64,000 bases of DNA. Source: SAR86 cluster bacterium. Lineage in GTDB: Bacteria > Pseudomonadota > Gammaproteobacteria > Pseudomonadales > Pseudohongiellaceae. The DNA lies in the NCBI GenBank assembly GCA_002746215.1, contig NVWI01000004.1, forward strand, positions 158,405 through 222,404, in the 5' to 3' direction. The translations under genes and the position numbers were made by a program. The notes under the pieces were generated by a model. It had not been told where the DNA came from and searched no databases. It worked only from the letters and a program-made list of their open reading frames with translations. Shown here one piece after another: positions 5,173 to 45,942 of this stretch; within the stretch, counting starts at the first letter, position 1, and the number at the start of each line of letters is the position of its first letter.

Positions 5173-5196
5173 GAAGCTTAACTCTATTCAAGCACT

Positions 5197-11691: not shown

Positions 11692-11823
11692 ATCTACATA
11701 TCCACTATTTGGGAAGTCGTCGTTTTAGCGTTTTTTCTGGGCAAGGTCTAGAGAATCTATTAGTTTTAAAATGATGAGCTTTTATACAAGCTTTCCACTA
11801 AAGAAATTATTTCTACCATCAAT

Positions 11824-12279
11824 TTACTCTGACACCTTATGTTTTTGCAATATTCTGTCAAGGTGGTTCGCAAATTGTTGTCGATCATTTTGATTAAGAG
11901 GCGCCGGCCCTCCTGTGTGCTCACCACTGGCCCGCATAGTATCCATAAAATCACGCATATTTAGGCGACTTTTTATATTGCTGGAAGTATAGAGTTCTCC
12001 ACGAGGACTCAAGGCCTGTCCACCTTTTTCTATTACTTCGTCTGCTAATGGAATGTCAGAAGTAATAACCAGATCACCCTCTTGTAGCAATTTAACAATT
12101 TCATCATCTGCCACATCAAAACCTGCTTTCACTTGAATGGCATTGATATAACGAGAACCAGATACACGGATTGACTGATTCGCGACCAGGGTTAATTCCG
12201 TCTGAGTTCTTTCAGCTGCCTTAAATAAGATATCTTTGATTACTATGGGACAGGCATCTGCATCAATCCAGATTTTCAA
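11824..12279 (-). CDS. yaiI: YaiI/YqxD family protein (UPF0178)
   Basis: The motif [10 protein letters not shown] lies at the N-terminus. I place the start at a TTG overlapping the pgpA stop (TTGA), which gives the 152-aa length typical of YaiI. The ORF-track ATG at 12312 would add 11 non-conserved residues. Confidence 0.75.
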
Positions 12280-13545: not shown

Positions 13546-13563
13546 AAAAAACGTGAGCCTATA

Positions 13564-13592
13564 AAATCAAGGGGTCATAAATCAAGGGGTCA
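13564..13592 (-). promoter_or_regulatory. Perfect 14-bp direct repeat (TGACCCCTTGATTT x2 on the minus strand) just upstream of the desaturase start. It is a candidate regulator-binding site.
   Basis: AAATCAAGGGGTCA occurs at 13564-13577 and again at 13579-13592, which is 19-47 nt upstream of the ATG at 13545. Confidence 0.2.
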
Positions 13593-13641
13593 GGTTGCTT
13601 GATTGCTAAATCACTCTGACACCCTCTGTTAATACTTATCA

Positions 13642-14760
13642 TCAATCCAGCCGTTTATTAAAACGCATTATAGCAATACTCAATGCTATGAAGGCGAACG
13701 CTAAAAGCGCCAGTATATCTGAACTCAAAAAATCAATCTCTGCCCCGCGCAACATTATATTTCGAATAATACGATTAAAATGCGTTAAAGGCAGTACTTC
13801 AGCTATAGCTTGAGCCGCTTTTGGCATGCCATCAAAGGGGAACATAAAACCAGAGAGCAAGATGGAAGGCAGAAAAAAGAAAAAAGTCATTTGCATTGCC
13901 TGAAACTGGGTTTGTGCTGACGTTGAAATCAATAAGCCCAGCGCGAGATTTGCTGCAATAAAGACCATGGTAGCTAGATACACATCAATTAGACTGCCTT
14001 GCACCGGCACCCTGAACAAAAACCAGCCTAATATTAAAATTAGGCTAACCTGGATAAAGCCAATTACGACATAAGGCAGTATTTTTCCTAGCATCAATTC
14101 CAGAGATTTAACCGGCGTATTGATTAAAAACTCCATATTGCCGCGCTCTTTCTCTCTTACTATAGCGACAGCTGTAAACAGCACCATTGTCATGGTTAAT
14201 ATAACGCCTATCAAACCCGGCACAATATTGACGGCTGAACGTCGCTCTGGATTATAAAAATTTCTGACCTCTAAACCGACCGAACCTTGTAATCGTCTTG
14301 TGCTGTCAAAGCTCACAGGAATATTCGCTAACTGTCGACCAACGCCAAGGATGATGGGATCAGTACCATCTACCAAAATCTGCGCTGCCGCTCTGTTGCC
14401 GCCGGCTCCGACTCTGTTTCTATCTAAAATACGCCGATCAAAATCTGGTGGTATATACAAACCAATGGAGATACTCCCTTGATCCATCAATGTAGTTAAC
14501 TCTTCAATTGTCGCGACTCGATACTGAAAATCAACAACCTGTGATGCCGTCATATCACTCACCATTTGGCGCGAAAGTGATGTATCAGCCTGGTCAACAA
14601 GCGCTGCCGTTAAATTGCGCACATCTGTATTTATTGCAAAACCAAAGAGCACTAATTGAATCAGGGGGATGCCGACGATCATGCCAAAAGTCAGCCTGTC
14701 TCTTAGTAGCTGAGTAAATTCCTTATGAAAAATAGCGTAGAGTCGCAGCAAAGATTTCAT
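13642..14760 (-). CDS. ABC-2 type transporter permease (YbhS/YbhR/YhhJ-like)
   Basis: It has an N-terminal TM helix, a large periplasmic loop and five C-terminal TM helices. Its start overlaps the stop of the upstream ATPase gene by 4 nt. Confidence 0.85.
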   Translation of the reverse strand: MKSLLRLYAIFHKEFTQLLRDRLTFGMIVGIPLIQLVLFGFAINTDVRNLTAALVDQADTSLSRQMVSDMTASQVVDFQYRVATIEELTTLMDQGSISIGLYIPPDFDRRILDRNRVGAGGNRAAAQILVDGTDPIILGVGRQLANIPVSFDSTRRLQGSVGLEVRNFYNPERRSAVNIVPGLIGVILTMTMVLFTAVAIVREKERGNMEFLINTPVKSLELMLGKILPYVVIGFIQVSLILILGWFLFRVPVQGSLIDVYLATMVFIAANLALGLLISTSAQTQFQAMQMTFFFFLPSILLSGFMFPFDGMPKAAQAIAEVLPLTHFNRIIRNIMLRGAEIDFLSSDILALLAFAFIALSIAIMRFNKRLD

Positions 14761-15746
14761 GAGACGACTTCCTGCCCTTTGCCTTTTGTACGTTCCTGCC
14801 TCTGTTCTTTTCTGTGTTTTTCCGTTACTGCTACAAAAACATCTTCCAGATTTGGTTCAATTTCAGCAACAGTTCCGGTTAATCCATTACGGTGTAAGAT
14901 TGCTTCCACTTTTTGTAAGGAATCAGCAACTGATTTTGGCATCAACACACGTAAATGTAGCCCCACCTGAGTCACACTGAATACTTCAGCTAATTTTAAT
15001 AAGGCGATTCTGGCTTCATTGGCCTTTTCAGTGATGACCTCATAAACATTCATATCAATGTTTTCACCCAGGTTTTTTGGTGTGTCATCAGCAACAATGA
15101 CGCCTTCATCCAAAATTGCCAGACGATGACAACGCTCAGCCTCATCCATGTAATGAGTAGAAACCAGAATAGTTGTTCCTTGCTCGGCAAGGGAAAATAA
15201 GGTCACCCAGAAATCACGCCGGTTTTGTGGATCAACGGCACTGGTTGGCTCGTCCAATAGCAGTAAACTCGGCTTATGTAAAATTGCAGCGGCCAAAGCT
15301 AAACGCTGACGCTGACCGCCACTAAGTGTTCCTGCACGTTGCTTCGCTTGAGATGAAAGCTCAAACTCTTCGAGCAATTCATTGACGCGTTGTTTTCTCT
15401 GTTTCCGCGGGATGGCATATATCTCGCCAACAAATGCCAGATTCTCTTTAACCGTTAAATCATCATAAAGTGAGAACTTCTGAGTCATATAGCCAATCTG
15501 ATGTTTTAAAATTTCTGCTTGTCTGGGAATTTGTAAACCCAGTACCTCTACCGTGCCTGAAGACGGTGTTAGCAAGCCACACAACATTCGAATGGTCGTC
15601 GATTTTCCCGAACCATTAGGCCCAAGAAAGCCATAAATAGAACCTGTCGGAATTTTTAAATTAATATTATTGACGGCAAGCAAGGAGCCAAAACGGCGGC
15701 TAAGCCCTGTTGCCGTGATTGCATAGTTTTCTTGTGAGGGATTCAA
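14757..15746 (-). CDS. ABC transporter ATP-binding protein (YbhF/CcmA-like)
   Basis: It carries Walker A GPNGSGKST, signature LSGGQRQR, and Walker B LLLLDEPT. Confidence 0.9.
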   Translation of the reverse strand: MNPSQENYAITATGLSRRFGSLLAVNNINLKIPTGSIYGFLGPNGSGKSTTIRMLCGLLTPSSGTVEVLGLQIPRQAEILKHQIGYMTQKFSLYDDLTVKENLAFVGEIYAIPRKQRKQRVNELLEEFELSSQAKQRAGTLSGGQRQRLALAAAILHKPSLLLLDEPTSAVDPQNRRDFWVTLFSLAEQGTTILVSTHYMDEAERCHRLAILDEGVIVADDTPKNLGENIDMNVYEVITEKANEARIALLKLAEVFSVTQVGLHLRVLMPKSVADSLQKVEAILHRNGLTGTVAEIEPNLEDVFVAVTEKHRKEQRQERTKGKGQEVVS

Positions 15747-15757
15747 AATAAAACCGT

Positions 15758-16696
15758 TTAAAAAATAACTTCTACTGGCACGCCGTCGGGCAACCTTTCC
15801 CTTTGCGTCTCAAGTGTTATCTCGGCAAGGTAACTCAGCCTGCCACGATCACTTTCTGTCAGGGAGTAATACGGGGTAAAAGAAGCTTCACTGGCAATTC
15901 TTCGCACTGTTCCAGCGAATGGTGTTTCTATACCATCAACCTTAATACTGACCTGAGTACCAGGTCTCACATTAATACGCAAAGCTTCAGGCACATAAAC
16001 ACGGGCGTAGGGTTGTTCCCCTGTTAGAAGAACGGCAACAACACTGCCCACGGGAGGGCGTTCTCCAATCTCAAAAGGCAAAGAATCTATAATTGCAGCG
16101 ACTGGAGCTAGACTGATTAAACGTGCTTTATCTATTGAAATTACGTCAAGTCTGGCATTTGCGCCGACTAAGAGCTGGCGAGTTTGTTCTATTTTTTCAA
16201 GCCTGGTTCCCGCTTCCAGTTCTCTTAATCTGGCACTGGCCTGTTCTATATTAGCTTGTGAAGCGTCGCGCTGCGAACGTGCAATATCGATTCTTTCCTG
16301 AGTCGCAACATCTGCTCCCAGGCGTTCGAGTCTGCCTAATTCCAAGAGGTTAATTTCGTATTGAACCTGTACAGCTCGGAGCGTTGCCTGAGCTGCTTCA
16401 ATAACTTCATTACGCGGGCCCGCTATCTGCTCGGCAAGTACCGCTTCCAGATTAGCAATCGACGCCCTGGCTTCTGCTTCTCTGGCAAGGATGCGGACAT
16501 TATCTTGCGCCAGTAAGACCTCTCCAGCGCTGACTGTCTGACCTTCAATAACATTTATTGCAATAATGGGCTCAAAACTTTCAACTGAAATTTCGACACG
16601 GTCTGATTCAAGCAAACCAACGGCAACAGGTACCATTTCTTCACAAGCCACCAGAAAAATGACTATGGGTAAAAGCATGCTTTTATGCATAAGCAC
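15758..16696 (-). CDS. HlyD-family periplasmic adaptor (YbhG-like)
   Basis: It has a signal/lipobox-like N-terminus (FLVAC), a coiled-coil middle and a beta-barrel C-terminus. It sits upstream of the ABC-2 ATPase and permease genes. Confidence 0.8.
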   Translation of the reverse strand: MLMHKSMLLPIVIFLVACEEMVPVAVGLLESDRVEISVESFEPIIAINVIEGQTVSAGEVLLAQDNVRILAREAEARASIANLEAVLAEQIAGPRNEVIEAAQATLRAVQVQYEINLLELGRLERLGADVATQERIDIARSQRDASQANIEQASARLRELEAGTRLEKIEQTRQLLVGANARLDVISIDKARLISLAPVAAIIDSLPFEIGERPPVGSVVAVLLTGEQPYARVYVPEALRINVRPGTQVSIKVDGIETPFAGTVRRIASEASFTPYYSLTESDRGRLSYLAEITLETQRERLPDGVPVEVIF

Positions 16697-16754
16697 TTCC
16701 TATCCTGTTGTTTAACTACCCAACTAACTATTCAAGCTATTGCTATGAAAATAA

Positions 16755-17750
16755 TTAACTAAAATGCCGATAGCCTGAATTCTTTATGTCAATTTCACGC
16801 CCATCACTATCCAGGCACTTAACCCTGCTACCCTTTACAACTCGACCTATTAGCGTCAATGGTACATTAATTTCTGCCGCTTTTTGTTGCAATTCTTCTT
16901 GTTGATCCTCGGCAACGGTTAGGGCTAATTCATATTCATCACCCGCCGTTAAAGCTAAATTCAAACCCTTACTTTTATCACCCATTGCACCCATGAAATT
17001 TTTCACTGCCTTCGAAATAGGAATAGCCTTTGCATTTAGTACAATGCCAACACCACTTTGTTCAGCAATATGCCCGAGATCAGCCATTAAACCATCAGAA
17101 ATATCGATAGCGGCTGAGGCTATCCCTGCAATACTTTGCCCCAGAATCACTCGCGGAACAGGCTGGTAGTATGCGCTGTGAAGCTCTTTGGTATCAGGCT
17201 TGTCCAAAGACATACCATTGCCCAGTAGACTCACAGCTAAACCTGCTGCACCTAACTCACCCGATACATAAACCAGTTCGCCGGGCCTGGCGCTGTCTCG
17301 CCTGAGTATTTTGCCTCTCTCAAGCAAGCCATGGACCTGTATCGTAATACTTAAAGGCCCTTTCGTAATATCCCCCCCGATAAGCGGGCAACGATACTTT
17401 TGAATCATTTGCTCCAGACCCAAGCTAAAGCCTTGTAGCCATGCCTCTTCTACTTTCGGCAAACTCAATGCAAGAGTAAATGCTAAAGGCTCAGCCCCCA
17501 TGGCAGCTAAATCACTTAAATTAACGGCCAAAGCGCGTTGAGCAATTAAGCCAGAATCAGCCTTGGCTGGGAAATGCACATCAGCGACTAAAGTGTCCAT
17601 GGATACGGCTAAAAGTCTTTCTGGAGGGAGGTCAATCACAGCGCAGTCATCGCCTATTCCCAAAGGGATTCTTGCAGACTGCTCCGTTGTTGGGATTAAA
17701 CCGGACTTATTAAAATAGTCCTTGATAAGATCAAATTCTGAAATGGCCAA
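16755..17750 (-). CDS. thiL: Thiamine-monophosphate kinase
   Basis: It has the AIR-synthase-like fold motifs IGDDCAV and DISDGL. Its position is the conserved one downstream of nusB. Confidence 0.9.
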   Translation of the reverse strand: MAISEFDLIKDYFNKSGLIPTTEQSARIPLGIGDDCAVIDLPPERLLAVSMDTLVADVHFPAKADSGLIAQRALAVNLSDLAAMGAEPLAFTLALSLPKVEEAWLQGFSLGLEQMIQKYRCPLIGGDITKGPLSITIQVHGLLERGKILRRDSARPGELVYVSGELGAAGLAVSLLGNGMSLDKPDTKELHSAYYQPVPRVILGQSIAGIASAAIDISDGLMADLGHIAEQSGVGIVLNAKAIPISKAVKNFMGAMGDKSKGLNLALTAGDEYELALTVAEDQQEELQQKAAEINVPLTLIGRVVKGSRVKCLDSDGREIDIKNSGYRHFS

Positions 17751-34151: not shown

Positions 34152-34354
34152 GAACCTGTTATTCCTGGATATTCAAATTTTAATCAGCAGCGAAACAATG
34201 CCAAAATAACTCTGCTATAGCAATGTTTCCTTGTAGATTGCTATAATGCGCCCCCTGATTTTCTAGCTCCTTCTTCTGACTTCCTGCTAGCTGATAGGCA
34301 GTTTACATTCCCAGAATCTATCTGGTCTGGCTGAAAGAGTAGTAATTGAGATAT

Positions 34355-36199
34355 ATGAATATGGCTGTAGAAGCTGAACAACATCAAAATATCGTTGTCC
34401 GTTTTGCCGGAGACTCCGGTGACGGCATGCAGTTAACCGGCACTAGCTTCACGCTGGCAACTGCTTTGCATGGCAATAATCTTTCAACTTTCCCGGATTT
34501 TCCGGCTGAAATTCGTGCCCCAATTGGCGCAACCTTTGGTGTATCTGCCTTCCAGATTTATTTCGGCTCAGAAGATGTCACCACTGCTGGCGATGAGGTT
34601 GAAGTGCTGGTTGCGATGAACCCTGCGGCGCTGATCACCAACTTGCAATATTTAGTATCAGGCGGTCTGGTCATTGTCGATACCGGCGCTTTTAATAAAA
34701 AAAATCTGGCTAAGGCTAAATATGCAAGCAATCCTTTAGAAGATGGTTCATTAGGTGCCTACAGAGTATTGGCCATCGACATCCATTCCCAGGTGATTGC
34801 TGCGGTCGAAGAATTTGGTTTAAGCCATAAAATGGCCTTGCGCTGCAAAAACATGTGGACTCTCGGATTAGTTTTATGGCTTTTTGATCGTGATAAGCAA
34901 AGTACCGTTGAAAGCTTACTAACTAAGTTCGCCAATAAGCCTGATATTGCCAATGCCAACGTTGCGGCTCTGAATGCCGGCAACGCCTATGGTGAAACGG
35001 CCGAATTACCCAGTGGTATTGCGGTATATAAAGTACCAAAGGCAAAACAGGCACCTGGTACTTATCGAAATGTGGATGGTGCCACGGCTCTGTCCTGGGG
35101 TTTACTCGCTGGCGGACAGCTGGCAAATCTAGGTATTTTATTTGCCTCGTATCCGATCACGCCAGCCTCAAACCTCTTGCACACCCTGGCAGCGCGTAAA
35201 GATTTCGATGTCATCACTTTTCAGGCCGAAGACGAAATTGCAGCAGTATGTGCCGCTATCGGCGCATCATTTGCCGGCTCACTAGGTGTCACATCCAGTG
35301 CCGGGCCTGGTATAGCGTTGAAACAGGAGGCTATTTCCCTGGCCGTATCGGCGGAATTACCTTTGGTCGTCGTTAATACGCAACGTGGCGGCCCATCAAC
35401 AGGCTTGCCCACCAAAACTGAACAATCCGATTTATTACAGGCTATTTATGGTCGTCATGGCGACACGCCACTTCCTGTCGTCGCTTCAAGTCACCCGGGC
35501 GACTGCTTCGACAGTGCCATAGAAGCCGTAAGGCTCGCCACCAAGTATATGACGCCTGTTATGTTGCTATCTGATGGTTATATCGCCAATGCCTCCGAGC
35601 CCTGGTTAATTCCTGACTTTGATGACTATGAAGCTTTCCCGGTGTCTTTCCATGACAAGCCTGAAGGATTTAAACCTTCATTGCGTGATGCTGAAACCCT
35701 GGCACGCGTCTGGGCCAAACCAGGCACAGCAGGCCTGGAACATCGTATCGGTGGTATTGAGAAAAGTTATGACACCGGTGATATCAGCTATGACCCTGAT
35801 AATCATCAAAAAATGACTGATACCCGTAAAGCCAAAATCGACAATATTGCCGCTGATATTCCCTTGCAGGACGTTCATCTGGGTAATGACAGCGGTAAGT
35901 TGGCTGTCGTCGGTTGGGGTTCTACTTATGGCGCTATCCATCAGGCCGTTAAAAGAAGCATTAGAGAAGGCTTGGACGTCGCTCATATCCATATTCGGCA
36001 TATGTGGCCCTTACCTGCGAATTTACAGGAGTTGCTATCAGGCTATGACAATATCCTGATACCAGAAATGAATACTGGCCAGTTAGTAAAAATCATACGT
36101 GCAGAATACCTGATCGATGCCAAAGCCTTGAATAAAGTATCTGGACAACCTTTTAAAATTAGTGAAATAGAGGATGCGATTAAATCCCAGCTCAGTTAG
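34355..36199 (+). CDS. korA: 2-oxoglutarate/2-oxoacid:ferredoxin oxidoreductase alpha subunit
   Basis: A fused gamma-alpha arrangement is typical of KorA (GDSGDGMQ, YPITPAS, GGPSTGLPTK). The start is ambiguous: TTG at 34346, or ATG at 34355 or 34361. Confidence 0.8.
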   Translation: MNMAVEAEQHQNIVVRFAGDSGDGMQLTGTSFTLATALHGNNLSTFPDFPAEIRAPIGATFGVSAFQIYFGSEDVTTAGDEVEVLVAMNPAALITNLQYLVSGGLVIVDTGAFNKKNLAKAKYASNPLEDGSLGAYRVLAIDIHSQVIAAVEEFGLSHKMALRCKNMWTLGLVLWLFDRDKQSTVESLLTKFANKPDIANANVAALNAGNAYGETAELPSGIAVYKVPKAKQAPGTYRNVDGATALSWGLLAGGQLANLGILFASYPITPASNLLHTLAARKDFDVITFQAEDEIAAVCAAIGASFAGSLGVTSSAGPGIALKQEAISLAVSAELPLVVVNTQRGGPSTGLPTKTEQSDLLQAIYGRHGDTPLPVVASSHPGDCFDSAIEAVRLATKYMTPVMLLSDGYIANASEPWLIPDFDDYEAFPVSFHDKPEGFKPSLRDAETLARVWAKPGTAGLEHRIGGIEKSYDTGDISYDPDNHQKMTDTRKAKIDNIAADIPLQDVHLGNDSGKLAVVGWGSTYGAIHQAVKRSIREGLDVAHIHIRHMWPLPANLQELLSGYDNILIPEMNTGQLVKIIRAEYLIDAKALNKVSGQPFKISEIEDAIKSQLS

Positions 36200-36257
36200 G
36201 CTTTAGTAGAGACTGAAATGCGCGAGATTTAAGTCGAGGATAGTGTAGGAGATAGTT

Positions 36258-37283
36258 ATGAACCAGGCAATCAACAAATTGACGCTTAAAGACTACACCT
36301 CTGACCAGGAAGTCCGTTGGTGCCCAGGCTGTGGTGACTATGCCATTCTGAAAACCATTCAGAAACTGATGCCTGAATTTGATCAACCAAAAGAAAATCA
36401 GGTTTTTATTTCAGGCATTGGTTGCTCATCACGTTTTCCTTATTACATGAATACTTATGGTTTTCATACTATTCACGGACGAGCACCAGCAATTGCTACC
36501 GGCGTTAAACTGGCCAACCCGGAACTCGACGTGTGGGTCATAACCGGAGACGGTGATGCCTTAAGTATTGGTGGCAACCACACTTTGCACGTCTTACGTC
36601 GTAACGTAGATCTGAACATACTCTTATTCAACAATGAAATTTATGGACTGACCAAAGGGCAATATTCACCGACGTCTAAAGTCGGCACACGTTCACCCTC
36701 TACACCACAAGGTTCAATCGACTTGCCGCTTTCCCCTTGCGCCGTCGCATTAGGTTCTGGCGCTGCCTTTGTTGCCCGTTCTATTGATACCGAGATGAAA
36801 CATCTAAGCGCTGTGATAAAAATAGCTCACGCGCATAAGGGTGCATCCTTTGTCGAAATTTTACAAAACTGCCCAATCTATAACGATGGTATTTTTGAAA
36901 ACATAAAAAACAAAAAAATTGCTGCCGATTTCAGAGTTGAAATTGAACATGGTCAACCCTTGATATTTGGTAAAGAAAATACCAAAGGCATTCGACTGAA
37001 CCGAGAAACGCTGGCACTGGAAGTTGTCACTATTGGGGAGGACTGTCCCTTGGAAGATGTACTGATTCATGACCAAACCAATCTCACCTTAGCCCAGTTA
37101 ATAGGCGCAATGGGCAGCACGAATGATGAAGGTTTTCCTGTGGCAGTCGGTGTGATTTATCACAACCCTAAACCGAATTACGTTGATGACTTATTCATCC
37201 AACGTGAGCGCTTACGTCAGGACAAGGATAAGGGCAATCTGAACGCATTATTGCGCAGTGGTCATACCTGGGAAGTTGCCTGA
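36258..37283 (+). CDS. korB: 2-oxoglutarate/2-oxoacid:ferredoxin oxidoreductase beta subunit
   Basis: It has the TPP-binding motif GDGDALSIGGNH and the CPGCGD cysteine motif. It lies directly downstream of korA. Confidence 0.85.
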   Translation: MNQAINKLTLKDYTSDQEVRWCPGCGDYAILKTIQKLMPEFDQPKENQVFISGIGCSSRFPYYMNTYGFHTIHGRAPAIATGVKLANPELDVWVITGDGDALSIGGNHTLHVLRRNVDLNILLFNNEIYGLTKGQYSPTSKVGTRSPSTPQGSIDLPLSPCAVALGSGAAFVARSIDTEMKHLSAVIKIAHAHKGASFVEILQNCPIYNDGIFENIKNKKIAADFRVEIEHGQPLIFGKENTKGIRLNRETLALEVVTIGEDCPLEDVLIHDQTNLTLAQLIGAMGSTNDEGFPVAVGVIYHNPKPNYVDDLFIQRERLRQDKDKGNLNALLRSGHTWEVA

Positions 37284-37301: not shown

Positions 37302-37377
37302 GTTGAAGTCGTTATATAAAGCTGAAGTCGTTATATAAAGCTGAAGTCGTTATATAAAGCTGAAGTAATTATATGAA
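37302..37377. repeat. 19-bp tandem repeat, four units, the last one degenerate
   Basis: G(C/T)TGAAGTCGTTATATAAA occurs at 37302, 37321 and 37340, with a degenerate unit at 37359. The array lies between the convergent 3' ends of korB and the first cluster gene. Confidence 0.9.
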
Positions 37378-37418: not shown

Positions 37419-38798
37419 TCATTCAAAATTTGGAATATCCATGATGGATGAAACAACCTGCAGCGCGTATTCACCCGTTTCCTCTTCAAAGTAAGACGTC
37501 ACTTGAATGTCAAAAGTGCCAAATTCAGCAGCTTCAATTTCCAGCAAGCTGTTAGACCCAAAGCCAAGACTGTCATCATCTGAAAAAAATTCTCCCGAAG
37601 GACTTTTTACGATTAAGTAAGTATCAAAATCCTCTGATTTCAGGCTTATCGTAAGAAGCTGCCCAGGCAAGGCAACTATTTCAAAGCTATCAATAAATTC
37701 ACCTGAGGCCTGTACTTCATCACCCGCTTCCAAACGGCCAATTTCGTCTAACGTGACTTCCCCCTCAAGCTCATCTTCAGTATTTATTTCAAGCGTATAA
37801 GCACCTGTCTCACCACTGCCAAAACTCGTTACCAGCACTTCATAAGCACCACTAAGCGTTAAATCCAACGACAGGCGTGAGCGATTTAAATCACCTTCAT
37901 AATCATCGTTTTCAAACTCTTCACCATTTGGAGCAATAACGATCAAGTAAGTATCAAAGTCTACTGAACGCAATTCAAACACAGTCCTTTGATTTGCAGA
38001 TCCTTCAAAAAAATAAGAATCAAGATACTTGCCTGTTTCGTCATCAACGTCGTCTTCAAATTCAAGCACGCCTCTTTCAATAATGCCGGCATTGTCCCAC
38101 GTGTCTCCGACATAAAATATCTCACCTGCGGCATATAAGGCACTGCAATCCGCGGCATCGTGCAAAGCATCCTCATCAAGTAAAGTAGTCGCTGAACCAC
38201 CCCCACCAAAACGCGGATCATCACATTCTCCATCGTTAGCCCAGTCACTTAAATCATCGCCAAAATCTATGTCTGCCAAGACTGGATCATCGTCGAATTC
38301 ATCCGCAGGCGGGATATTATCTTCTCCGACAAAATTCACACTGCCTTGATAGAGTAACGTTCTACAATCTGTTGCATCTTGCCGGACGTCATCGGCACTA
38401 GAAGCCACCGCTTCACCGTCAAAACGCGGATCATCACACTCCCCGTCTTCAGGCCAGCCGCCCTCATCATCACCAAACTCAATAGCTCTCAAAGCCAGAT
38501 TTGCTGACTCACTGGCAAGAAAGATCAAGCCTTGATCAAATAAACTGCTGCAGTCACTGGCATCGTTTTCGATACTCATTTCAACACCGATACCAGCAGA
38601 AATATTTCCCATACCTGGCCCACGGAAACGGGTATCAGAGCATTCGCCATTAACAGAAAATTCACTACTGTCATCGCCAAACATTAAAGCCGTTGTTTTT
38701 CCGCTATTAAAAGCAATAAAAAATATCAAAAAGCAAAGCGCCACCAGCAAAGCAATAGACAAGTGCTGATAAACACGCACGGCATTCATTTCACTCAC
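37419..38798 (-). CDS. Signal-anchored extracytoplasmic protein with three Cys-containing repeats and two PPC-like (pre-peptidase C-terminal-like) modules
   Basis: It has an N-terminal hydrophobic anchor (LSIALLVALCFLIFFIAF). Three repeats of about 50 aa read FGDD...W..DGECDDPRF.G...DA.DC..L. Two acidic modules contain DFDTYLIV..P.GE.F..DD. Confidence 0.7.
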   Translation of the reverse strand: MSEMNAVRVYQHLSIALLVALCFLIFFIAFNSGKTTALMFGDDSSEFSVNGECSDTRFRGPGMGNISAGIGVEMSIENDASDCSSLFDQGLIFLASESANLALRAIEFGDDEGGWPEDGECDDPRFDGEAVASSADDVRQDATDCRTLLYQGSVNFVGEDNIPPADEFDDDPVLADIDFGDDLSDWANDGECDDPRFGGGGSATTLLDEDALHDAADCSALYAAGEIFYVGDTWDNAGIIERGVLEFEDDVDDETGKYLDSYFFEGSANQRTVFELRSVDFDTYLIVIAPNGEEFENDDYEGDLNRSRLSLDLTLSGAYEVLVTSFGSGETGAYTLEINTEDELEGEVTLDEIGRLEAGDEVQASGEFIDSFEIVALPGQLLTISLKSEDFDTYLIVKSPSGEFFSDDDSLGFGSNSLLEIEAAEFGTFDIQVTSYFEEETGEYALQVVSSIMDIPNFE

Positions 38799-38852: not shown

Positions 38853-41201
38853 TTAACCACTTAAATCACAAGTGAATTGAATCCCAGCAATTTCAATCCT
38901 GTCGCCCTGGTTCACAACAGTCCTGGAAAATGGCTGAACTTTATTACCATTCACTGAGGTGCCATGAGTAGAACTCAAGTCTTCCAACACAACAATTTGG
39001 CCCTCTTTACGCAAACGACAATGCCGTCGAGATACTCTGGAATCGTTAAGCACCACATGATTCAGCGTTGCTGAGCGGCCAATCACCAGGCCTTCTTTTG
39101 AACTCAGTAAGGCGTCATCCAATTCAATAGAGTTACTGGTTCCAGAACCAACTAGACGGCCAGCAACTCGGCTTCTGTTGACCGATACCTGTTGTGGGCT
39201 CACTCTGGCTTCTGGTTCTGCTGACGGCGCTGGTGTTGCAGCGGATGCTCGATATTCTGGCCCTGCTGTGCTGTATTCAGGGCGCAAGCGACTCAAGCCG
39301 AATAAAGCCAATAATACAAAGGCGAGACCAAGACCAATATAGAGCGCATTGTTATTTGCCGCCTCAGTTGTCGGAGTAGAAATTGGATCACCGGGAGTTG
39401 GCGTAGCAACCGGGCCAGATGAAGGGTCCGGTGGTGTTGGTGCCGGACTGGGTGTCGGCACAGGTGTTGGCACTGGTGTCGGGTCAGATTGAGGAATTGG
39501 CGTTGGCGTAATTACTGGCGGTGGTGTTGGAGCTTGTCGTCGCCATGCGCCAGAAATACCTACTGCATCCATCGCTTCATGCACCGCAATCCAGTTATCA
39601 GAATACTCGCCATAGAGAATTTCTGCAGCTAGAGCAAAAGCGTTTCTACCTGCCTCAAAATCGGCATAAGGCGTTAATAATTGAGATCCGGCTAAACCAA
39701 AAATGGCGGCAGCATTGGCAATGCCAATTCCCTGTACATTTGGTCCTGTACCTAATCGAGGATGTCGACCACCTTCAACCAAGATATAGAACGCCTGATT
39801 AATGATGGATGAATTTGAGTGCACGCCACCCTGGTCATTTTCGATTGGCACAGAATAAAATTGATCATAGTGATCAGGGTTATTATCAATCCTGTTAGGG
39901 TTTCTCATATCCCGTAGGGGGCCAACAGGACTGTCCATAGTCCATAAATTCGAATAAGTTGGTATAGACGAAGGGTTCTGTCCAAGTGCTCCCCCGGCTT
40001 CACGCCAGGCCTTAAATGAAACACCAATAGCATCCGCTATGCCTTCATCCATTGCACCAGATTCAAATTCATAGATAAGCCCACTGCCCGTGGAAATAAT
40101 GCCATGCGTCAGTTCATGCGCAATAACTTCAATATAGGGTATAGCGCTGGCCGGAATGTGAAGCTCATTCCAACCCGAATACCATGAAGCATTAAACGCG
40201 TCGCCTACACATTCACTCCAGCCATTTCCGGGATAGAAACGAATGCCAGAATACGCTTCTAGCGCAAGACCCTGATTATCAACACTGTCCATGTTTAAAA
40301 CGCTGGACATAAATTGATAGGCATCGCCTAGAATATTATAGAGCTGATCAACATGCCCCACTCCACTCGATGCGTCACCCTCATTTCGTGTAAACGTATC
40401 ATCTTGCTCCATCAAGTTTTGAATTTCTAATGACCTATCTGAGTCAATCGGATAGTCGACACCGACTGATCTGCACGCTGCTTCCATATCTCTTACTAAG
40501 CGCCTAAGTGCCCCTCGAGCCATCGGATATTTTGCAAGAAGCTCACCATTCACCGCATCAATATAAATATTTTCTGCCACTCCAGTGCTGGTAAATCCGT
40601 TAACTGACCAACTTAAGCGTAGATTCCCCGCATCATCTACGAAATAAACAGGCGCACTCGGCGTATCTAAACTTTCAGCGATATCAGCAATCACCCTGGC
40701 TTGTTCAAAAGAAATTTGAGAAAGAGTAGGCGCATCTGCAGTAAATCCCTGATGCTGACCAAGCAAACTTATTTGATTGCCTTGGGAATCAAGTATAAGC
40801 CTGGATTCGTATCCAACTATTGAGATGCCCTGGTGAGTTTGCTGCAACGAACGAATGTTGAAATTATTAACGGTACTACTCTGCTCAGACAGACTAAGCT
40901 CATCAGCAGGACCAAGATTGAGTTGCTGTTTTAATTCACTACCAAGCCAACTTACAATTGCCTCATCACTGGTTAGTCTTTTGCTATTTTCACCAAAGCC
41001 ATCAACAAACACAGCGTTAGCATCACTCGCACCTTCTTCAGTGCTTATAGGAGCCTCAGCGTCATTAATAAGAGCCTCAGCGTCATTAATAAGAGCCTCA
41101 GCGTCATTAATAAGAGCCTCAGCGTCATCAATAAGAGCCTCAGCGCCCATAAGAGCGCCCGATATTACTAACAGTAAGGAGCAAGCAAAAAATCTACACA
41201 T
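38853..41201 (-). CDS. Thermolysin-like M4 metalloprotease (FTP-PepSY propeptide plus M4 catalytic domains) joined by a Pro/Thr linker and one TM helix to a cytoplasmic FHA domain
   Basis: - N-terminus: signal peptide, then EALI(N/D)DA heptads
- Propeptide: FTP motif LQQTHQGISIVG and a PepSY-like block
- Catalytic domain: zinc site VIAHELTHGI plus GAMDEGIADAIG, and GGVHSNSSIINQAFY
- Linker: PTPPPVITPTPIPQSDPTPVPTPVPTPSPAPTPP
- TM helix: LYIGLGLAFVLLALFGL
- C-terminal FHA: VIGRS..VSRRHCRL..LSSTHGTSVNG. Confidence 0.8.
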   Translation of the reverse strand: MCRFFACSLLLVISGALMGAEALIDDAEALINDAEALINDAEALINDAEAPISTEEGASDANAVFVDGFGENSKRLTSDEAIVSWLGSELKQQLNLGPADELSLSEQSSTVNNFNIRSLQQTHQGISIVGYESRLILDSQGNQISLLGQHQGFTADAPTLSQISFEQARVIADIAESLDTPSAPVYFVDDAGNLRLSWSVNGFTSTGVAENIYIDAVNGELLAKYPMARGALRRLVRDMEAACRSVGVDYPIDSDRSLEIQNLMEQDDTFTRNEGDASSGVGHVDQLYNILGDAYQFMSSVLNMDSVDNQGLALEAYSGIRFYPGNGWSECVGDAFNASWYSGWNELHIPASAIPYIEVIAHELTHGIISTGSGLIYEFESGAMDEGIADAIGVSFKAWREAGGALGQNPSSIPTYSNLWTMDSPVGPLRDMRNPNRIDNNPDHYDQFYSVPIENDQGGVHSNSSIINQAFYILVEGGRHPRLGTGPNVQGIGIANAAAIFGLAGSQLLTPYADFEAGRNAFALAAEILYGEYSDNWIAVHEAMDAVGISGAWRRQAPTPPPVITPTPIPQSDPTPVPTPVPTPSPAPTPPDPSSGPVATPTPGDPISTPTTEAANNNALYIGLGLAFVLLALFGLSRLRPEYSTAGPEYRASAATPAPSAEPEARVSPQQVSVNRSRVAGRLVGSGTSNSIELDDALLSSKEGLVIGRSATLNHVVLNDSRVSRRHCRLRKEGQIVVLEDLSSTHGTSVNGNKVQPFSRTVVNQGDRIEIAGIQFTCDLSG
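41051..41152 (-). repeat. In-frame 21-bp tandem repeat (4.8 units) inside the M4-FHA gene
   Basis: GAGCCTCAGCGTCATTAATAA repeats perfectly at 41051, 41072 and 41093, with one mismatch at 41114 and a partial unit at 41135. It encodes EALINDA/EALIDDA heptads directly after the signal peptide. Confidence 0.9.
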
Positions 41202-41202
41202 C

Positions 41203-42951
41203 TTATGCCTCCCCTATATTTACTGGCAAACGCATCAGGACCGCCCCATCTTGAGCATCCAAAAATACACGCTCTTGAGCACCTTCAATGACTACTTCGA
41301 TATACCAGGCTAGATGGTAAGTACCTTCCACCTCGACAATAATTAACTGCGCCGCATCAGTTTCGGCTCTGGGACTAACGGCCATTGCCAGGCTCTGGTT
41401 TGCAAGATCCAGAGCTTGGTCAAAACTAAGTTCAGGTTCAACATTAATCTCAATATCATTGCCTGTTGAGCCGCTGATATTAAACACATTGCCATTGATC
41501 TCTACCGCAACAACTTCTGCACCGAAAACCGGAATACCAAGATGAGTCTGCTCCAGTCGAATTATGCGATTGCCATTAACCTCACCTTCTGTGCTGATGG
41601 ATAAGGCATCATTAGGACCAAGCCGATCATTTAATAACAGCATGTCTGTGATTTCCGCTATCAGCTCTTCATTGCTACTGACTTCTATAGCGGTTTCTAG
41701 TTGAATGGAATCTAGAACTCTGTCTTCTCGCACGGCCCCTTCACTATTTGTAGCCGGCGTAGTGTCCTGGGTAACAGGCAGCCCTTCCCCGCCTTCACCA
41801 TTTGCTTGATTGGCAGTGCTTTCTGCCTCCTCCAAGGTCCCATCTGCTCCCTGAGACTGATCATTATTCTCAGACTGGTTTGTATTCTGAGAACCAGCTT
41901 CCTCAGAGCCTCCAGACATAATCATTACCAGCCCCGCAAGAACAACAATCACACCGGCAATTAACAACCATTTTTTAGTAGACCCAGCATTAGAGCTAGC
42001 ATCAGAGCTGATAGTAGCGCTGGGTCTTGTTGCTTGAGAATCAGGAGAGCTAGCGGAATCCACACGGGACTCAGTAACCGCTTCTCGCTTTCCTGGATTG
42101 GTTATTGGATCTTCAACTTCTGGCATTGGCTGATGCTCATTGTCGTCTTGATTAGAATTTGTCATAAGAGAATCCTGATTACTTGCGTTTATTTCTACCA
42201 TTATTACCGTTGTGTTGTCATGTTTTGGTCGCTCTTTCATCTTTTCCAGCAAAGCAGCCTCAATTATTGCGTCTGCTTCTTTCGAATCTGTATCAAATAA
42301 TGCCAGCACCTCTTCGGTGCTGAAAATTTCCCAGAAGCCATCACTGCATACCGTAAACCGCTCCCCCTTTGCCAAATCCCAGTGGGTAATTTCAGGGTCA
42401 GGTAAATCCTGACCGCCAATATTAGAAATAACCGTGCCCTGATCTGGGTCTTCAGCTAACTCTTCTTCCGTAATTTTCCCTTGTAACACTTTCAGCTGTG
42501 CCAACGAATGATCAAAGGACTGTGCAATTTTTTGAGTATTCGAATATTGAGTGATGCGACTATCACCAGCATGAATGGATATGGCTTTGTCGTGTTCACC
42601 ATCTTTATAAAGGTAGAGCGCAGCAAGAGTTGACCGAGGTTCCAACCCATTAGCTTCTCCAACCTTATTAACCGCCAGGTGACTCTCAGAAACCAGCTTA
42701 TACAAGAAGCTTTCTACACCTTCTATATCAATACTTGCCCGTAGGAGCTGTTCTTGCCATAACGTATTTGCTGTCTCGATCACAGTCTGCGCAGCCAGCG
42801 CGCTGCCTTTATGGCCGCCCATACCATCGGCAACCACACAAAGCAGGCTTTGCTGCTCGGAATTTTGCAAAACGCTAAAACGATCCTGATTTTCTTCGCG
42901 ATGACCAATATGCGAAAAAGAAGTGATGCTGCACTTATTTTGGGAAGGCAT
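41203..42951 (-). CDS. PP2C-family Ser/Thr phosphatase joined by one TM helix to an extracytoplasmic FTP/PepSY (thermolysin-propeptide-like) module
   Basis: - N-terminal PP2C motifs: VVADGMGGHKGS, AGDSR, FTVCSDGFW, DNTTVIMV
- Ser/Thr-rich linker
- TM helix: WLLIAGVIVVLAGLVMIM
- Acidic low-complexity spacer
- C-terminal module: LEQTHLGIPVFGAEVV (FTP) and a PepSY-like block (YHLAWYIEV..VFLDAQDGAVL)
- Its stop is 1 nt from the ATG of the M4-FHA gene (TAAgATG). Confidence 0.8.
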   Translation of the reverse strand: MPSQNKCSITSFSHIGHREENQDRFSVLQNSEQQSLLCVVADGMGGHKGSALAAQTVIETANTLWQEQLLRASIDIEGVESFLYKLVSESHLAVNKVGEANGLEPRSTLAALYLYKDGEHDKAISIHAGDSRITQYSNTQKIAQSFDHSLAQLKVLQGKITEEELAEDPDQGTVISNIGGQDLPDPEITHWDLAKGERFTVCSDGFWEIFSTEEVLALFDTDSKEADAIIEAALLEKMKERPKHDNTTVIMVEINASNQDSLMTNSNQDDNEHQPMPEVEDPITNPGKREAVTESRVDSASSPDSQATRPSATISSDASSNAGSTKKWLLIAGVIVVLAGLVMIMSGGSEEAGSQNTNQSENNDQSQGADGTLEEAESTANQANGEGGEGLPVTQDTTPATNSEGAVREDRVLDSIQLETAIEVSSNEELIAEITDMLLLNDRLGPNDALSISTEGEVNGNRIIRLEQTHLGIPVFGAEVVAVEINGNVFNISGSTGNDIEINVEPELSFDQALDLANQSLAMAVSPRAETDAAQLIIVEVEGTYHLAWYIEVVIEGAQERVFLDAQDGAVLMRLPVNIGEA

Positions 42952-43134: not shown

Positions 43135-43416
43135 ATGCCATCTAAAACGTCATTTAAAACCTACAGCGTTGGTCGCGGCTCAGATGTCGATATTCAGATA
43201 AGTGGTCAAAGCGTATCCAGGCACCATCTTGAACTCACCGCAACGAATGACGGTAGATACTATCTGATTGATGCCAACTCTAGCAGTGGAACCCAGATTC
43301 AACGAGGTGGAAACTGGGAATCAATCAATCAAGGCTTTGTCACTGCAAACGACACCTTATTACTCGGTAAAGAAAGCATCCAAATACAACAATTGCTCTC
43401 AAAAATGAAACATTAG
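43135..43416 (+). CDS. Stand-alone FHA-domain protein (93 aa)
   Basis: YSVGRGSDVDIQI..VSRHHLEL..SSSGTQI matches the FHA core. It is the first gene of the plus-strand operon. Confidence 0.75.
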   Translation: MPSKTSFKTYSVGRGSDVDIQISGQSVSRHHLELTATNDGRYYLIDANSSSGTQIQRGGNWESINQGFVTANDTLLLGKESIQIQQLLSKMKH

Positions 43417-43515
43417 ATAGCTGCAATAATCGTAATAGCACTAGTTAGCAGCCTAGCAGCCAATTGAGCCACATCTTAACGAACAGAAAGATTTAACAAA
43501 GGTGAATAAACCAGC

Positions 43516-44331
43516 ATGAATAATCTAGAACAACAAGAAACTAATTTTCGCATAGTCGTAGCGCTGGTTGCGTCAATCATTGCTGCGGTTTTTATTGGCG
43601 TTATGTCTCTAGTATTTTCGCCTAGCGAAGGTGCCGTTGGTCAATTAGCCATGGGCGATATTTTGTTTGATCGTTCTACCGATGTCTTCCCTTACCCGCT
43701 GACTATTCAGAATATGATGTGGTTACTATTCATGGTTGGCTTCGGCGAATTGTGGATCAGGTTTGATCGAGGCACAAAAGAAATGGCGCAATTAAAAAGA
43801 GGTTTATTGCCTGAGGATGATAGCACTATGTTGCGCGCCAAGGAGTTAGTGCCTATATTCAGTTCTGTTGTAGACAACACTAAAACCCGTTACTTTTTCT
43901 TACCACGCTTGATGCACCGTATTATTTTACAGTTTCAGAATAGCCAGTCCATCAATCAATCCAATAGCTTAATGAATTCCAGTCTGGAATTAATGCAACA
44001 TGAAATAGATTTGAAATATAATATGGTGCGTTATTTAGTCTGGTTGATCCCAACTATCGGCTTTATTGGAACTGTTATTGGTATCGCACTTTCTTTATCG
44101 GAAGCGGCAAACATGCCAGACCTGGGTCAAAGCGACGCTATCAGAGTTTGGATGGGCGTGTTAACAACCAAGTTGGGTGTTGCCTTTAACACAACCTTAT
44201 TAGCATTGGTTATGTCAGCCATCCTGGTTTTTTTCATGCACCTGGCGCAAGGTCGTGAAGAAAGCGCGCTTAACAATACTGGGCAATATTGCATGGATAA
44301 TTTAATCAACAGACTTTATGAAGAAAAATAA
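43516..44331 (+). CDS. MotA/TolQ/ExbB-family proton-channel-like membrane protein (orphan)
   Basis: It has four predicted TM helices. LIPTIGFIGTVIGI and LGVAFNTTLLALVMSAILVFF resemble the conserved last two helices of ExbB/TolQ/MotA. No ExbD/TolR/MotB-like partner lies nearby. Confidence 0.55.
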   Translation: MNNLEQQETNFRIVVALVASIIAAVFIGVMSLVFSPSEGAVGQLAMGDILFDRSTDVFPYPLTIQNMMWLLFMVGFGELWIRFDRGTKEMAQLKRGLLPEDDSTMLRAKELVPIFSSVVDNTKTRYFFLPRLMHRIILQFQNSQSINQSNSLMNSSLELMQHEIDLKYNMVRYLVWLIPTIGFIGTVIGIALSLSEAANMPDLGQSDAIRVWMGVLTTKLGVAFNTTLLALVMSAILVFFMHLAQGREESALNNTGQYCMDNLINRLYEEK

Positions 44332-44357
44332 AGAGTCATCTTTCCTGGAGGTTTATT

Positions 44358-45050
44358 ATGGCAGTTAAAAGAGGACCAGACGGTATACCTATCGATGTGC
44401 CATCCGTCATGCACGAAAAGTCCAAACACGCATCACCGGCCAGTGATGCGCCTACATCATTATTTGATAACACTGGCCATGTAAACGCCGATAATGATAA
44501 GCCAACTGAATTAAATCCGAATCAGTCCAGTAGTTTATTCGGAGACGAACCGCCTACGGTTAAAGCTGATCAAAGTGGTGCTGCAACGCCAAATCAATCT
44601 GCTGCTGCAGTTGATGAGCCAGCAACGGTTATTGCTGGAGGAGCCGGTCGTCCCAGTCACGCAACAAAAGATGACTCTGGAAACCAACAAATTGATGCAA
44701 TGGCAGACCCTGTCGTTGGTTGGTTGGTTGTTGTCGATGGCCCTGGTAAAGGCAATTATTTAAAATTAGGTAACGGCCAAAACAGTATAGGCCGCGGCAA
44801 CTCTGAACGCATAAAACTGGATTTCGGTGACGATCAAATTTCACGCGCTAATCATGCAATGTTGACGTTTGATCCGCGTGGTGGAGGATTTTATATCCAA
44901 CAGGGATCAGGCACTAACCTGGCTTACCTTGATAACAGCCCGGTCCTGTCACCGACTAAACTAAGTGCGGGTAGTCGTATCACTCTCGGTGATACAACGC
45001 TGATGTTTGCCCCATTATGTGGAGAAAATTTCAGCTGGGATGAGGAATAA
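44358..45050 (+). CDS. FHA-domain protein with a long disordered N-terminal region
   Basis: About 125 aa of Ser/Thr/Pro/Ala-rich low-complexity sequence (SLFDNT / SLFGDEPPT motifs) comes first. Then SIGRG..ISRANHAML..GSGTNLAYLDN gives the FHA signature. No TM helix is present. Confidence 0.75.
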   Translation: MAVKRGPDGIPIDVPSVMHEKSKHASPASDAPTSLFDNTGHVNADNDKPTELNPNQSSSLFGDEPPTVKADQSGAATPNQSAAAVDEPATVIAGGAGRPSHATKDDSGNQQIDAMADPVVGWLVVVDGPGKGNYLKLGNGQNSIGRGNSERIKLDFGDDQISRANHAMLTFDPRGGGFYIQQGSGTNLAYLDNSPVLSPTKLSAGSRITLGDTTLMFAPLCGENFSWDEE

Positions 45051-45056
45051 CACTGC

Positions 45057-45893
45057 ATGAGTGCTGAAGAAGCGAGCACCTTGAAAAGCCTGGTTATAGA
45101 TTCTGGCTGGGGCCAGATTATTGGCACTAGAAAATCGCAGCAAGACCATGCTGTTATTGTTAATTGGCCTACTGGTTTTGCCCTTTCAATATTAGCCGAT
45201 GGTATGGGCGGTCACGCTGGTGGAGCAGAGGCTAGCCACTTAGTCGTAGATACATTTCGACAAAGTTTTGTAGACTCGACTGAAAGCAATATTCGGCAAC
45301 GCTTTCTGGAAGGCTTATCTGCCGCTAATCTTGCAGTTTATGAACACGCTAAAAACAATCCGGAACTCGAAGGTATGGGCTCTACTTTTTTAGCAGTCAC
45401 TTTCGATGGTTCTGCTATCCAGTGGATCAGCGTCGGTGATAGCCCACTTTGGTTATTCCGTGATGGAGAAATTCGCCAAATAAATGAAAATCATTCCATG
45501 GCGGCGGTGCTGGCTAAACAAGTTGAAGAAGGGCTTATCAGCAAAGAAGAAGCTGCAAGCTCTCCTGAACGCAGCCAATTACTCGATGCCGTGTTGGGCA
45601 AAGACATCAAAATGGTTGATGCCCCCGAAGAAGCGCTACAAGTACAAAACGGTGACATTATTATTTTAGCCAGTGACGGCGTTGAAACCTGCTCACTAGA
45701 AGAGCTACAGGAATTGCTCACAAGTGAAACACAGGATGCTGCCAGCAGCGCAAAACAAATCGTTGCGAAAATTTTAACAAAGGTTGAAGAGCATCAACGC
45801 AAGTCTCAGGATAACTCTACTGTTAATGTACTGCGTATCCTCAACGACCAGGAACAAATAAATACTGTACAGAATAAGAATAGCGAAGCTTAA
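45057..45893 (+). CDS. Cytoplasmic PP2C-family Ser/Thr phosphatase
   Basis: Motifs found are ILADGMGGHAGG, GSTFLAV, VGDSPLWLFRDG, IILASDGV, and DNSTVNVL. It starts 6 nt after the preceding FHA gene. Confidence 0.85.
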   Translation: MSAEEASTLKSLVIDSGWGQIIGTRKSQQDHAVIVNWPTGFALSILADGMGGHAGGAEASHLVVDTFRQSFVDSTESNIRQRFLEGLSAANLAVYEHAKNNPELEGMGSTFLAVTFDGSAIQWISVGDSPLWLFRDGEIRQINENHSMAAVLAKQVEEGLISKEEAASSPERSQLLDAVLGKDIKMVDAPEEALQVQNGDIIILASDGVETCSLEELQELLTSETQDAASSAKQIVAKILTKVEEHQRKSQDNSTVNVLRILNDQEQINTVQNKNSEA

Positions 45894-45942
45894 GTCATAA
45901 AATAAAAAACAAGTTTTGGTTCAAATTATTGGAAATATTAAG

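Follow-up and report, generated by a model that had tools for sequence, protein, structure and literature searches.

The propeptide of a secreted protease is regarded as a folding aid and an inhibitor that can be discarded. The locus analysed here raises the question of what such a propeptide does when it is built into a phosphatase. It lies in a 64,000-nucleotide stretch of contig NVWI01000004.1 from a SAR86 cluster bacterium (this whole stretch is called the window), in which two genes follow each other closely. The first encodes a protein of 582 amino acids (aa) composed of a PP2C domain, a transmembrane (TM) helix and a C-terminal FTP/PepSY module, hereafter the ectodomain; the second encodes an M4 protease with a TM helix and a C-terminal FHA domain (M4-TM-FHA). 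Our analysis indicates that the ectodomain is probably a membrane-tethered propeptide acting in trans on the M4-TM-FHA protease, the pair of proteins being a split zymogen. The 582-aa protein is identical to P0001 from Haliea sp. AH-315-K21, also deposited as a SAR86-cluster metagenome-assembled genome.

What kind of protein carries the module? Its N-terminal part is a predicted PPM/PP2C Ser/Thr phosphatase. Pfam PP2C_2 matches residues 13-216 (E 2.6e-14, 53.7 bits versus a threshold of 24), the NCBIfam Stp1 family matches with E 1.3e-31, under its equivalog cut-off, and the metal-binding motifs are all found (ENQD20, ADGMGGH41, SDGFWE203 and HDNTT244), with D42, G43, D204, G205, D245 and N246 invariant among 40 aligned homologues. 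The sole strongly hydrophobic segment of the protein spans residues 329-347, preceded by KK and followed by EE, and no N-terminal signal peptide was found in the topology analysis. From these flanks and the missing signal peptide, the PP2C domain is predicted to be cytoplasmic and the C-terminal module periplasmic, at the end of a long, disordered tether of about 65 residues. Pfam and hydropathy agree with the architecture given in the initial annotation, namely a cytoplasmic PP2C domain followed by a TM helix and, at the C-terminus, a module of about 170 aa, and topology prediction, which could have refuted the proposal made there, places that module in the periplasm.

The module is related to the propeptide of the neighbouring protease. 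BLASTP aligns the two with 27% identity over 166 aa (E 3e-14), so that the parallel sequence blocks noticed at the outset reflect true homology. An AlphaFold2 model of residues 408-582, computed from a 28-sequence alignment, reached a predicted local distance difference test score (pLDDT) of 91.3 and a predicted template modelling score (pTM) of 0.85. When this model was compared with the PDB by Foldseek, the top matches were the propeptide chains of autoprocessed vibriolysin MCP-02 (3nqz_A/3nqy_A, E 1.5e-7), with a TM-score of 0.66 under both normalisations, which means that the complete two-domain propeptide chain is matched. The fungalysin propeptide came next (4k90_B, E 9e-7), and then the PepSY protein YpeB (5boi). 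Similarly, in a phmmer search of the PDB, the top matches were all M4 precursors or propeptides, the best being the thermolysin precursor and the MCP-02 propeptide. Even the end point is similar: 9 residues separate the last PepSY strand from the C-terminus in the PP2C protein, and 7 residues follow the equivalent strand in the autoprocessed MCP-02 chain. The window ectodomain is nevertheless a separate polypeptide, encoded upstream and not contiguous with the M4 catalytic domain. In a neighbour-joining tree of FTP/PepSY modules, three clades were obtained, corresponding to the PP2C-tethered modules ("ecto"), the own propeptides of the M4-FHA proteases ("pro") and the propeptides of ordinary M4 enzymes.

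Compared with its homologues P0002-P0005, the window protein is 56-70% identical in the ectodomain and 61-71% in the PP2C domain, and only 26-45% in the linkers. To judge from these identities, the ectodomain is under purifying selection and conserved as strongly as the PP2C domain. One short stretch of the cytoplasmic linker stands out from this variability: the motif EVEDPITNPGK, with the pattern [ED]VED[PS][IV]TNPG[KRN], is kept in P0002-P0005 and in the homologues P0304-P0311 discussed below, and "TNP"-like motifs precede the TM helix in further clades (P0021, P0036). It is a candidate phosphothreonine site or FHA ligand.

The putative target of the module is a complete enzyme. The protease matches Peptidase_M4_C (E 3.6e-34) and, by phmmer, thermolysin (E 1.4e-25), and its thermolysin-type active site has all of its elements: HELTH at 362, the Glu zinc ligand in GAMDE at 382-386, and GGVHSNS at 458. 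Its C-terminus, made of the TM helix (placed at 619-637 by the topology analysis) and the FHA domain, matches NCBIfam FhaB_Rv0019c (E 3e-12).

At the junction of the two genes (GGGGAGGCATAAgATG), the TAA of the phosphatase gene is separated by a single base from the ATG of the protease gene, and a GGAGG Shine-Dalgarno sequence lies 6 nt 5' of this ATG; the TAAgATG arrangement reported initially can be read directly in the window. The two genes are co-transcribed, and their translation could be coupled.

Is this neighbourhood kept elsewhere? The architecture PP2C, TM, variable linker and FTP/PepSY recurs in approximately 40 clusters (formed at 90% identity), with identities as low as 28%. Synteny was assessed on a sample of 11 loci (L081-L091), nine of them looked up from the PP2C side, including L083 of the cultivable Halioxenophilus sp. 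WMMB6, and two (L090 and L091) found by scanning metagenomes. Without exception, both in the window and in these 11 loci, where identity falls to roughly 30%, the gene directly after the PP2C-ectodomain gene, on the same strand, encodes an M4 protease. The distance between the two genes ranges from -14 to +183 nt in the further loci, and the M4 gene carries a TM helix and an FHA domain wherever its reading frame is intact. In the metagenome scan, for which a narrowed ectodomain alignment was used, L090 and L091 were the only true family loci, the rest being ordinary M4 zymogens. Another 80 loci (L001-L080), collected by a contig scan with generic PP2C motifs, were rejected as family members, as all of them encode unrelated PP2Cs.

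If the tethered module acts as a propeptide, what happens when the protease has none of its own? The proteases of L082 and L088 pass straight from signal peptide to catalytic domain, which places HExxH at residue 151 versus about 340, and the PP2C-ectodomain gene is still found 4 nt upstream. The sister locus L089 has retained the cis propeptide. The window protease was used for an exhaustive HMMER search of 1.84 billion representatives, and the 69 representatives above about 200 bits were classified locally: 48 have their own propeptide, and 5 to 7 have none. One of the propeptide-less proteases, P0173 (locus L108, on a TARA scaffold), is encoded directly behind a 242-aa protein consisting of an anchor and an ectodomain.

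In other representatives the tethered module has become part of the protease. P0136 and its relative P0186 have a TM helix, a linker and an ectodomain in frame with the M4 catalytic domain, and no PP2C. Their residues 1-295 score 114-172 bits against the C-terminal halves of PP2C-ectodomain proteins versus 34-42 bits against modules of the pro type, and no PP2C is encoded upstream of the P0136 fusion gene in its locus (L106). This locus is rich in transposase and reverse-transcriptase genes (3153-7191 and 13379-14710), which suggests rearrangement. In the AlphaFold2 model of P0136, pLDDT is 96-98 for the ectodomain and 90-98 for the catalytic domain, and between these domains only residues 295-300 are disordered; they lie at the junction, the place where an autoprocessing site would be. 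Its pTM of 0.65, reached with about 200 of the 855 residues disordered, suggests, without proving it, that the ectodomain and the catalytic domain are confidently placed relative to each other. Foldseek comparison of this model with the PDB confirmed the three domain identities.

The most complete fusions are P0167 (1093 aa) and P0192 (1128 aa), in which a full PP2C-TM-ectodomain protein runs from its last residue directly into M4-TM-FHA. In P0177 (1028 aa), PP2C and TM precede a module of the pro type. P0167 is encoded on an Illumina TARA scaffold (L107) within the same kinase/VWA/FHA/PP2C/MotA cluster as the window pair, and this locus has no separate PP2C-ectodomain gene. Such single chains, which unite the phosphatase, the propeptide and the tethered protease, make it very likely that the pair is a functional unit. 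In a neighbour-joining tree of the catalytic domains, propeptide-less and fused forms were scattered over at least five places among ordinary ones, indicating that propeptide losses and fusions have recurred.

Table 1. Features of the phosphatase-protease pair and its surroundings. Positions are those of the window, residues those of the encoded protein.
Feature	Position	Strand	Residues	Details
PP2C-TM-FTP/PepSY gene	41203..42951	-	582 aa	Bitopic protein; open reading frame list, Pfam
PP2C (PPM) domain, cytoplasmic	42190..42915	-	13-254	Pfam, NCBIfam, metal-binding motifs intact
EVEDPITNPGK motif	42088..42120	-	278-288	Cytoplasmic linker; conserved in P0001-P0005 and P0304-P0311
TM helix	41911..41976	-	326-347	Kyte-Doolittle maximum 2.68; predicted N-in/C-out
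FTP+PepSY propeptide-like ectodomain, periplasmic	41206..41712	-	414-582	Pfam FTP, BLASTP, AlphaFold2, Foldseek
Gene junction	41199..41214	-		GGAGG Shine-Dalgarno within the end of the PP2C gene, TAA, 1 nt, protease ATG
M4-TM-FHA protease gene	38853..41201	-	782 aa	Open reading frame list, Pfam
Protease signal peptide			1-21	
Protease DAEALIN repeats			22-50	
Protease own (cis) FTP/PepSY propeptide	40512..40979	-	~75-230	Paralogue of the PP2C ectodomain; BLASTP, neighbour-joining tree
Protease catalytic domain			231-552	
Protease Pro-rich tether			553-618	
Protease TM			619-641	
Protease FHA domain, cytoplasmic	38874..39101	-	701-776	Pfam FHA (PF00498), E 3.5e-18, residues 706-771
PPC-domain protein gene	37419..38798	-	459 aa	Downstream of the protease gene, 54 nt gap; Pfam PPC
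Divergent conserved cluster	43135..50787	+		Seven genes beside the pair; Pfam
FHA gene	43135	+		
MotA/ExbB gene	43516	+		
FHA gene	44358	+		
Soluble PP2C gene	45057	+		
Trypsin-like-TM-FHA gene	45916	+		
VWA gene	47874	+		
Ser/Thr kinase gene	48820	+		FGE-sulfatase ectodomain

Since a tethered module can replace the propeptide of the protease and can also become that propeptide, a split zymogen is the simplest reading of these data. It also describes the module better than the term "decoy" of the initial annotation, which is too weak for what is the sole propeptide in several lineages. The propeptides of M4 enzymes both help folding, as chaperones, and inhibit the enzyme once it is mature (PMC13576997, PMC6490944), from which we infer that the ectodomain binds the catalytic domain. 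It would do so in the periplasm, like an autoprocessed propeptide, with its free C-terminal end (RLPVNIGEA) close to the active-site cleft, and would act as an inhibitor and, for proteases devoid of a cis propeptide, as a foldase too. If the single-chain forms were to process themselves, exactly the two membrane proteins that are separately encoded in the window would result. On the cytoplasmic side, one half would bring a PP2C phosphatase and the other an FHA domain, a reader of phosphothreonine. As the periplasmic complex is made or destroyed, the phosphatase would be brought close to, or moved away from, the FHA-bound phosphoproteins of the neighbouring kinase/FHA/VWA/MotA cluster. Conversely, contacts between phosphothreonine and FHA in the cytoplasm could stabilise the inhibited complex.

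A more specific version, which we put forward tentatively, is a transmembrane switch, in which propeptide-protease contacts on one side and phosphothreonine-FHA contacts on the other clamp the two proteins across the membrane. The kinase and the phosphatase might then gate the protease or, in the other direction, destruction of the propeptide might irreversibly remove the phosphatase. The cytoplasmic contact of such a clamp could sit at EVEDPITNPGK.

Several observations weigh against the split zymogen, or against parts of it. In the window, the protease keeps its own propeptide; folding thus does not require the tethered module, whose role in this case would have to be regulatory. It would most likely be a regulated inhibitor or a docking partner, and not a foldase. 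Secondly, at least eight clusters of close homologues (P0304-P0311), whose ectodomains are 62-81% identical to that of the window, have no PP2C domain. They begin at a Met equivalent to M263 of the window protein and keep EVEDPITNPGK, the TM helix and the ectodomain; four of them are on contigs of exactly the same size as contigs with M4-FHA orthologues. M263 itself (42163-42165) might be an internal start in the window, where it is preceded by only a weak AGGA 8 nt upstream. Coupling to the phosphatase is therefore common and not obligatory, and is dispensable in some genomes. The core of the initial proposal, a trans-acting, propeptide-like periplasmic module tied to the M4-FHA protease, is strongly supported by strict synteny, repeated loss of the cis propeptide and fusions; the coupling to PP2C turned out not to be universal.

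The remaining reservations concern single domains and the quality of the data. GR and SxxH (SRRH) are retained in the FHA domains of the M4-FHA proteases, but the canonical Asn of SxNGT is replaced by H, R, V or Y throughout the family (L081-L089), and by His in the window, and phosphothreonine binding may be altered. In the ectodomain, the FTP half of the initial FTP/PepSY assignment held, as Pfam FTP (PF07504) matches residues 458-495 with 30.4 bits versus a gathering score of 21. The PepSY half did not hold at the profile level: Pfam PepSY (PF03413) found no match in the PP2C protein at E <= 0.1, and it is only the modelled fold that points to it. The own propeptide of the protease has a weak Pfam PepSY match (E 0.016). 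Finally, several loci (L084, L085 and L088) come from error-prone, low-coverage long-read assemblies and show evident frameshifts, and both neighbour-joining trees were simple ones, without support values.

Contact between the two proteins might also serve another end. The ectodomain could be a bait, which the protease or its trypsin-like neighbour would degrade on a periplasmic cue, so as to release or destabilise PP2C, inhibition being secondary; the analogy would be with anti-sigma factors, which undergo regulated proteolysis. Once autoprocessing has taken place, classical M4 enzymes digest their propeptides (PMC6490944, PMC13576997). The disordered periplasmic tether would be accessible, and the cluster encodes a second membrane-tethered protease with an FHA tail. 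However, degradation alone leaves unexplained why proteases devoid of a propeptide always keep the module adjacent, or fused in the propeptide position. As a stand-alone account it seems to us rather unlikely, and it is better seen as a refinement of the split zymogen than as an alternative to it.

Rather than taking part in signalling, the tethered module could just help the protease to fold, with the PP2C fusion as a mere anchor or a means of co-expression. The existence of PP2C-less homologues fits this idea, as does the fact that a propeptide-less protease must find some chaperone, a need established for M4 enzymes (PMC13576997). Yet the module persists, and is conserved, where the protease has its own propeptide, as in the window and in about 48 of the 69 representatives. 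The fusion to PP2C extends over the whole diversity of the family (40 clusters), three independent single chains unite PP2C, propeptide, M4 and FHA, and the pair always sits beside a kinase/PP2C/FHA cluster. A pure foldase is therefore improbable.

It could also be that the ectodomain never touches the protease and is a generic periplasmic sensor or anchor of a PstP-like phosphatase, its likeness to the propeptide stemming from an old duplication. PepSY domains are found in many non-peptidase membrane proteins, for instance in YpeB, which controls SleB (PMC13556211) and was among the Foldseek matches of the ectodomain (5boi), and PstP is an example of a membrane PP2C that bears an ectodomain (PMC12088040). 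An independent sensor does not account for the M4 gene being adjacent in every locus examined, nor for a module that stands in for a lost cis propeptide and is placed by in-frame fusions in the propeptide position, and we consider it quite improbable. That the module is a decaying, functionless remnant of a duplication or rearrangement, as frameshifts and transposons at some loci might hint, is hardly credible for a domain conserved like the PP2C catalytic domain, folding confidently in AlphaFold2 and kept in 40 or more clusters, at identities as low as 28%.

How does the split zymogen compare with known systems? With the cis propeptides of M4 and M36 proteases (vibriolysin MCP-02, 3NQY/3NQZ; LasB pro-elastase; thermolysin), the ectodomain shares the FTP+PepSY fold, the FTP family and the end point, and its fused relatives hold the module in front of the catalytic domain. 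It differs from them in that it forms part of another polypeptide, one that is held in the inner membrane and also bears a cytoplasmic PP2C. The window protease in turn differs from classical M4 zymogens, as it is tethered to the membrane with an FHA tail instead of being secreted, and keeps a second, cis propeptide. A separately encoded partner beside an M4 protease is known in Pseudomonas savastanoi, where RhpP has no propeptide and the adjacent small protein RhpC stabilises and inhibits it, being described by the authors as a functional mimic of a propeptide (PMC6490944). By this description the likeness is a functional analogy: unlike the window protein, RhpC is a small, acidic, cytoplasmic protein without membrane tether, PP2C or FHA. 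In Bacillus spores, YpeB, a membrane-anchored PepSY protein and a structural neighbour of the ectodomain, holds SleB inactive in trans (PMC13556211; PDB 5BOI); its target is a cell-wall lytic enzyme, and it has neither FTP nor a phospho-signalling domain.

On the phosphatase side, actinobacterial PstP has the same PP2C-TM-extracytoplasmic architecture (PMC12088040), with an ectodomain that is not a protease propeptide. On the protease side, the C-terminal TM and FHA resemble the FhaB/FipA-type TM-FHA proteins of Actinobacteria, FhaB having no protease ectodomain. PstP and FhaB are, like the window pair, encoded with Ser/Thr kinases, in different organisms and a different gene cluster. As for the flanking cluster, its combination of VWA, Ser/Thr kinase, PP2C and FHA recalls the vWA-Ser/Thr kinase-PP2C operons reportedly named "TerY-P triad" by Anantharaman et al. 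in 2012. It also recalls the vWA-Ser/Thr kinase-PP2C(-FHA) operon DRA0331-0334 of Deinococcus (bioRxiv 10.64898/2026.01.23.701218). The Deinococcus operon lacks the membrane-tethered proteases, the propeptide module and the MotA/ExbB component of the window cluster, and the triad is not known to include any of them.

Literature searches on PP2C with PepSY or FTP, on M4 with FHA, and on the kinase/FHA/VWA/FGE-sulfatase cluster found no description of this architecture, and neither FTP nor PepSY is mentioned in a survey of PP2C domain architectures in bacteria that dates from 2025. Within the reach of these searches, the novelty claimed in the initial annotation holds. The parts are known, namely a PPM phosphatase, an M4 propeptide, an M4 peptidase and an FHA domain. 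What is new is a propeptide homologue tethered to a phosphatase and paired with a protease that is itself linked to a reader of phosphopeptides, a combination that none of the compared systems has. In this pair, a propeptide has persisted as a domain of its own, anchored in the membrane and connected to Ser/Thr phospho-signalling. Provided that the two halves do interact, extracytoplasmic proteolysis could be linked to signalling by Hanks-type kinases and phosphatases, in either direction. To our knowledge, the few well-studied bacterial Ser/Thr signalling systems have revealed no such link. The series of variants, from two propeptides to the tethered one only and to fused forms, with or without the phosphatase, amounts to a natural experiment on trans-acting propeptides.

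The pair is flanked by a divergently oriented cluster, which is kept in L081-L083, L085, L087-L091 and L107, usually with a kinase that has an FGE-sulfatase ectodomain. Together they form, in marine Gammaproteobacteria, a cluster of about 10 genes encoding a kinase, two PP2Cs, four FHA proteins, two tethered proteases, a VWA protein and MotA/ExbB. PADLOC matched no known anti-phage defence system in it, giving just generic PP2C, kinase and MotA-like matches to its proteins. The second tethered protease (45916-47871, + strand), conserved across loci, follows the same design logic as M4-TM-FHA: a signal peptide, a trypsin-like domain, a coiled coil, a TM helix and a canonical cytoplasmic FHA domain with SANGT. 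The small FHA protein at 43135 has SSSGT.

Other loci show additions of their own. In L087, a gene for a bacterial alpha-2-macroglobulin, a protease inhibitor, and a MoxR/DUF58/transglutaminase set flank the cluster (1-2618 and 15324-17563). Two M4-FHA genes lie within 10 kb of each other in L086, which also contains several additional Ser/Thr kinase genes (1-2402, 9509-12175). In L107, pairs of AAA_15 ATPase and DUF4276 genes lie on both sides of the P0167 cluster (3985-6033, 16461-17428). The PP2C-ectodomain genes of some clades, from L082 (8001-9452), L084 (8001-9527), L088 and L089, encode a weakly hydrophobic membrane segment (Kyte-Doolittle 1.3-1.6), with Arg-rich sequence upstream, for example ALRRRAFVFAALPAAW, and AxA-like sequences after it. 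This segment looks more like a cleavable or Tat-like signal than a stable anchor, so that, at these loci, the ectodomain might be set free.

Downstream of the protease gene, the PPC-domain gene is probably the last of the operon, and a terminator-like hairpin lies beyond it, at 37395-37380. Among the loci compared, it is kept at this position in close relatives only (L090 and L091). Its product combines an N-terminal anchor, three copies of the motif GDD..W..DGECDDPRF.. and domains of the PPC (pre-peptidase C-terminal) type; it may serve the protease as a substrate or an accessory. Adjoining the hairpin, the intergenic region downstream of this gene contains a 19-nt tandem repeat (TGAAGTCGTTATATAAAGC; 37304-37374, 3.7 copies, 96% matching). 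Past the operon, at 34346-37283 on the + strand, the translations of two large open reading frames resemble, by eye, the alpha and beta subunits of a 2-oxoacid:ferredoxin oxidoreductase. Within the M4-FHA gene itself, a 21-nt tandem repeat (41047-41145, - strand; 4.7 copies, 97% matching) encodes the (D)AEALIN heptads that follow the signal peptide and that are not present in the homologues aligned with the window protease.

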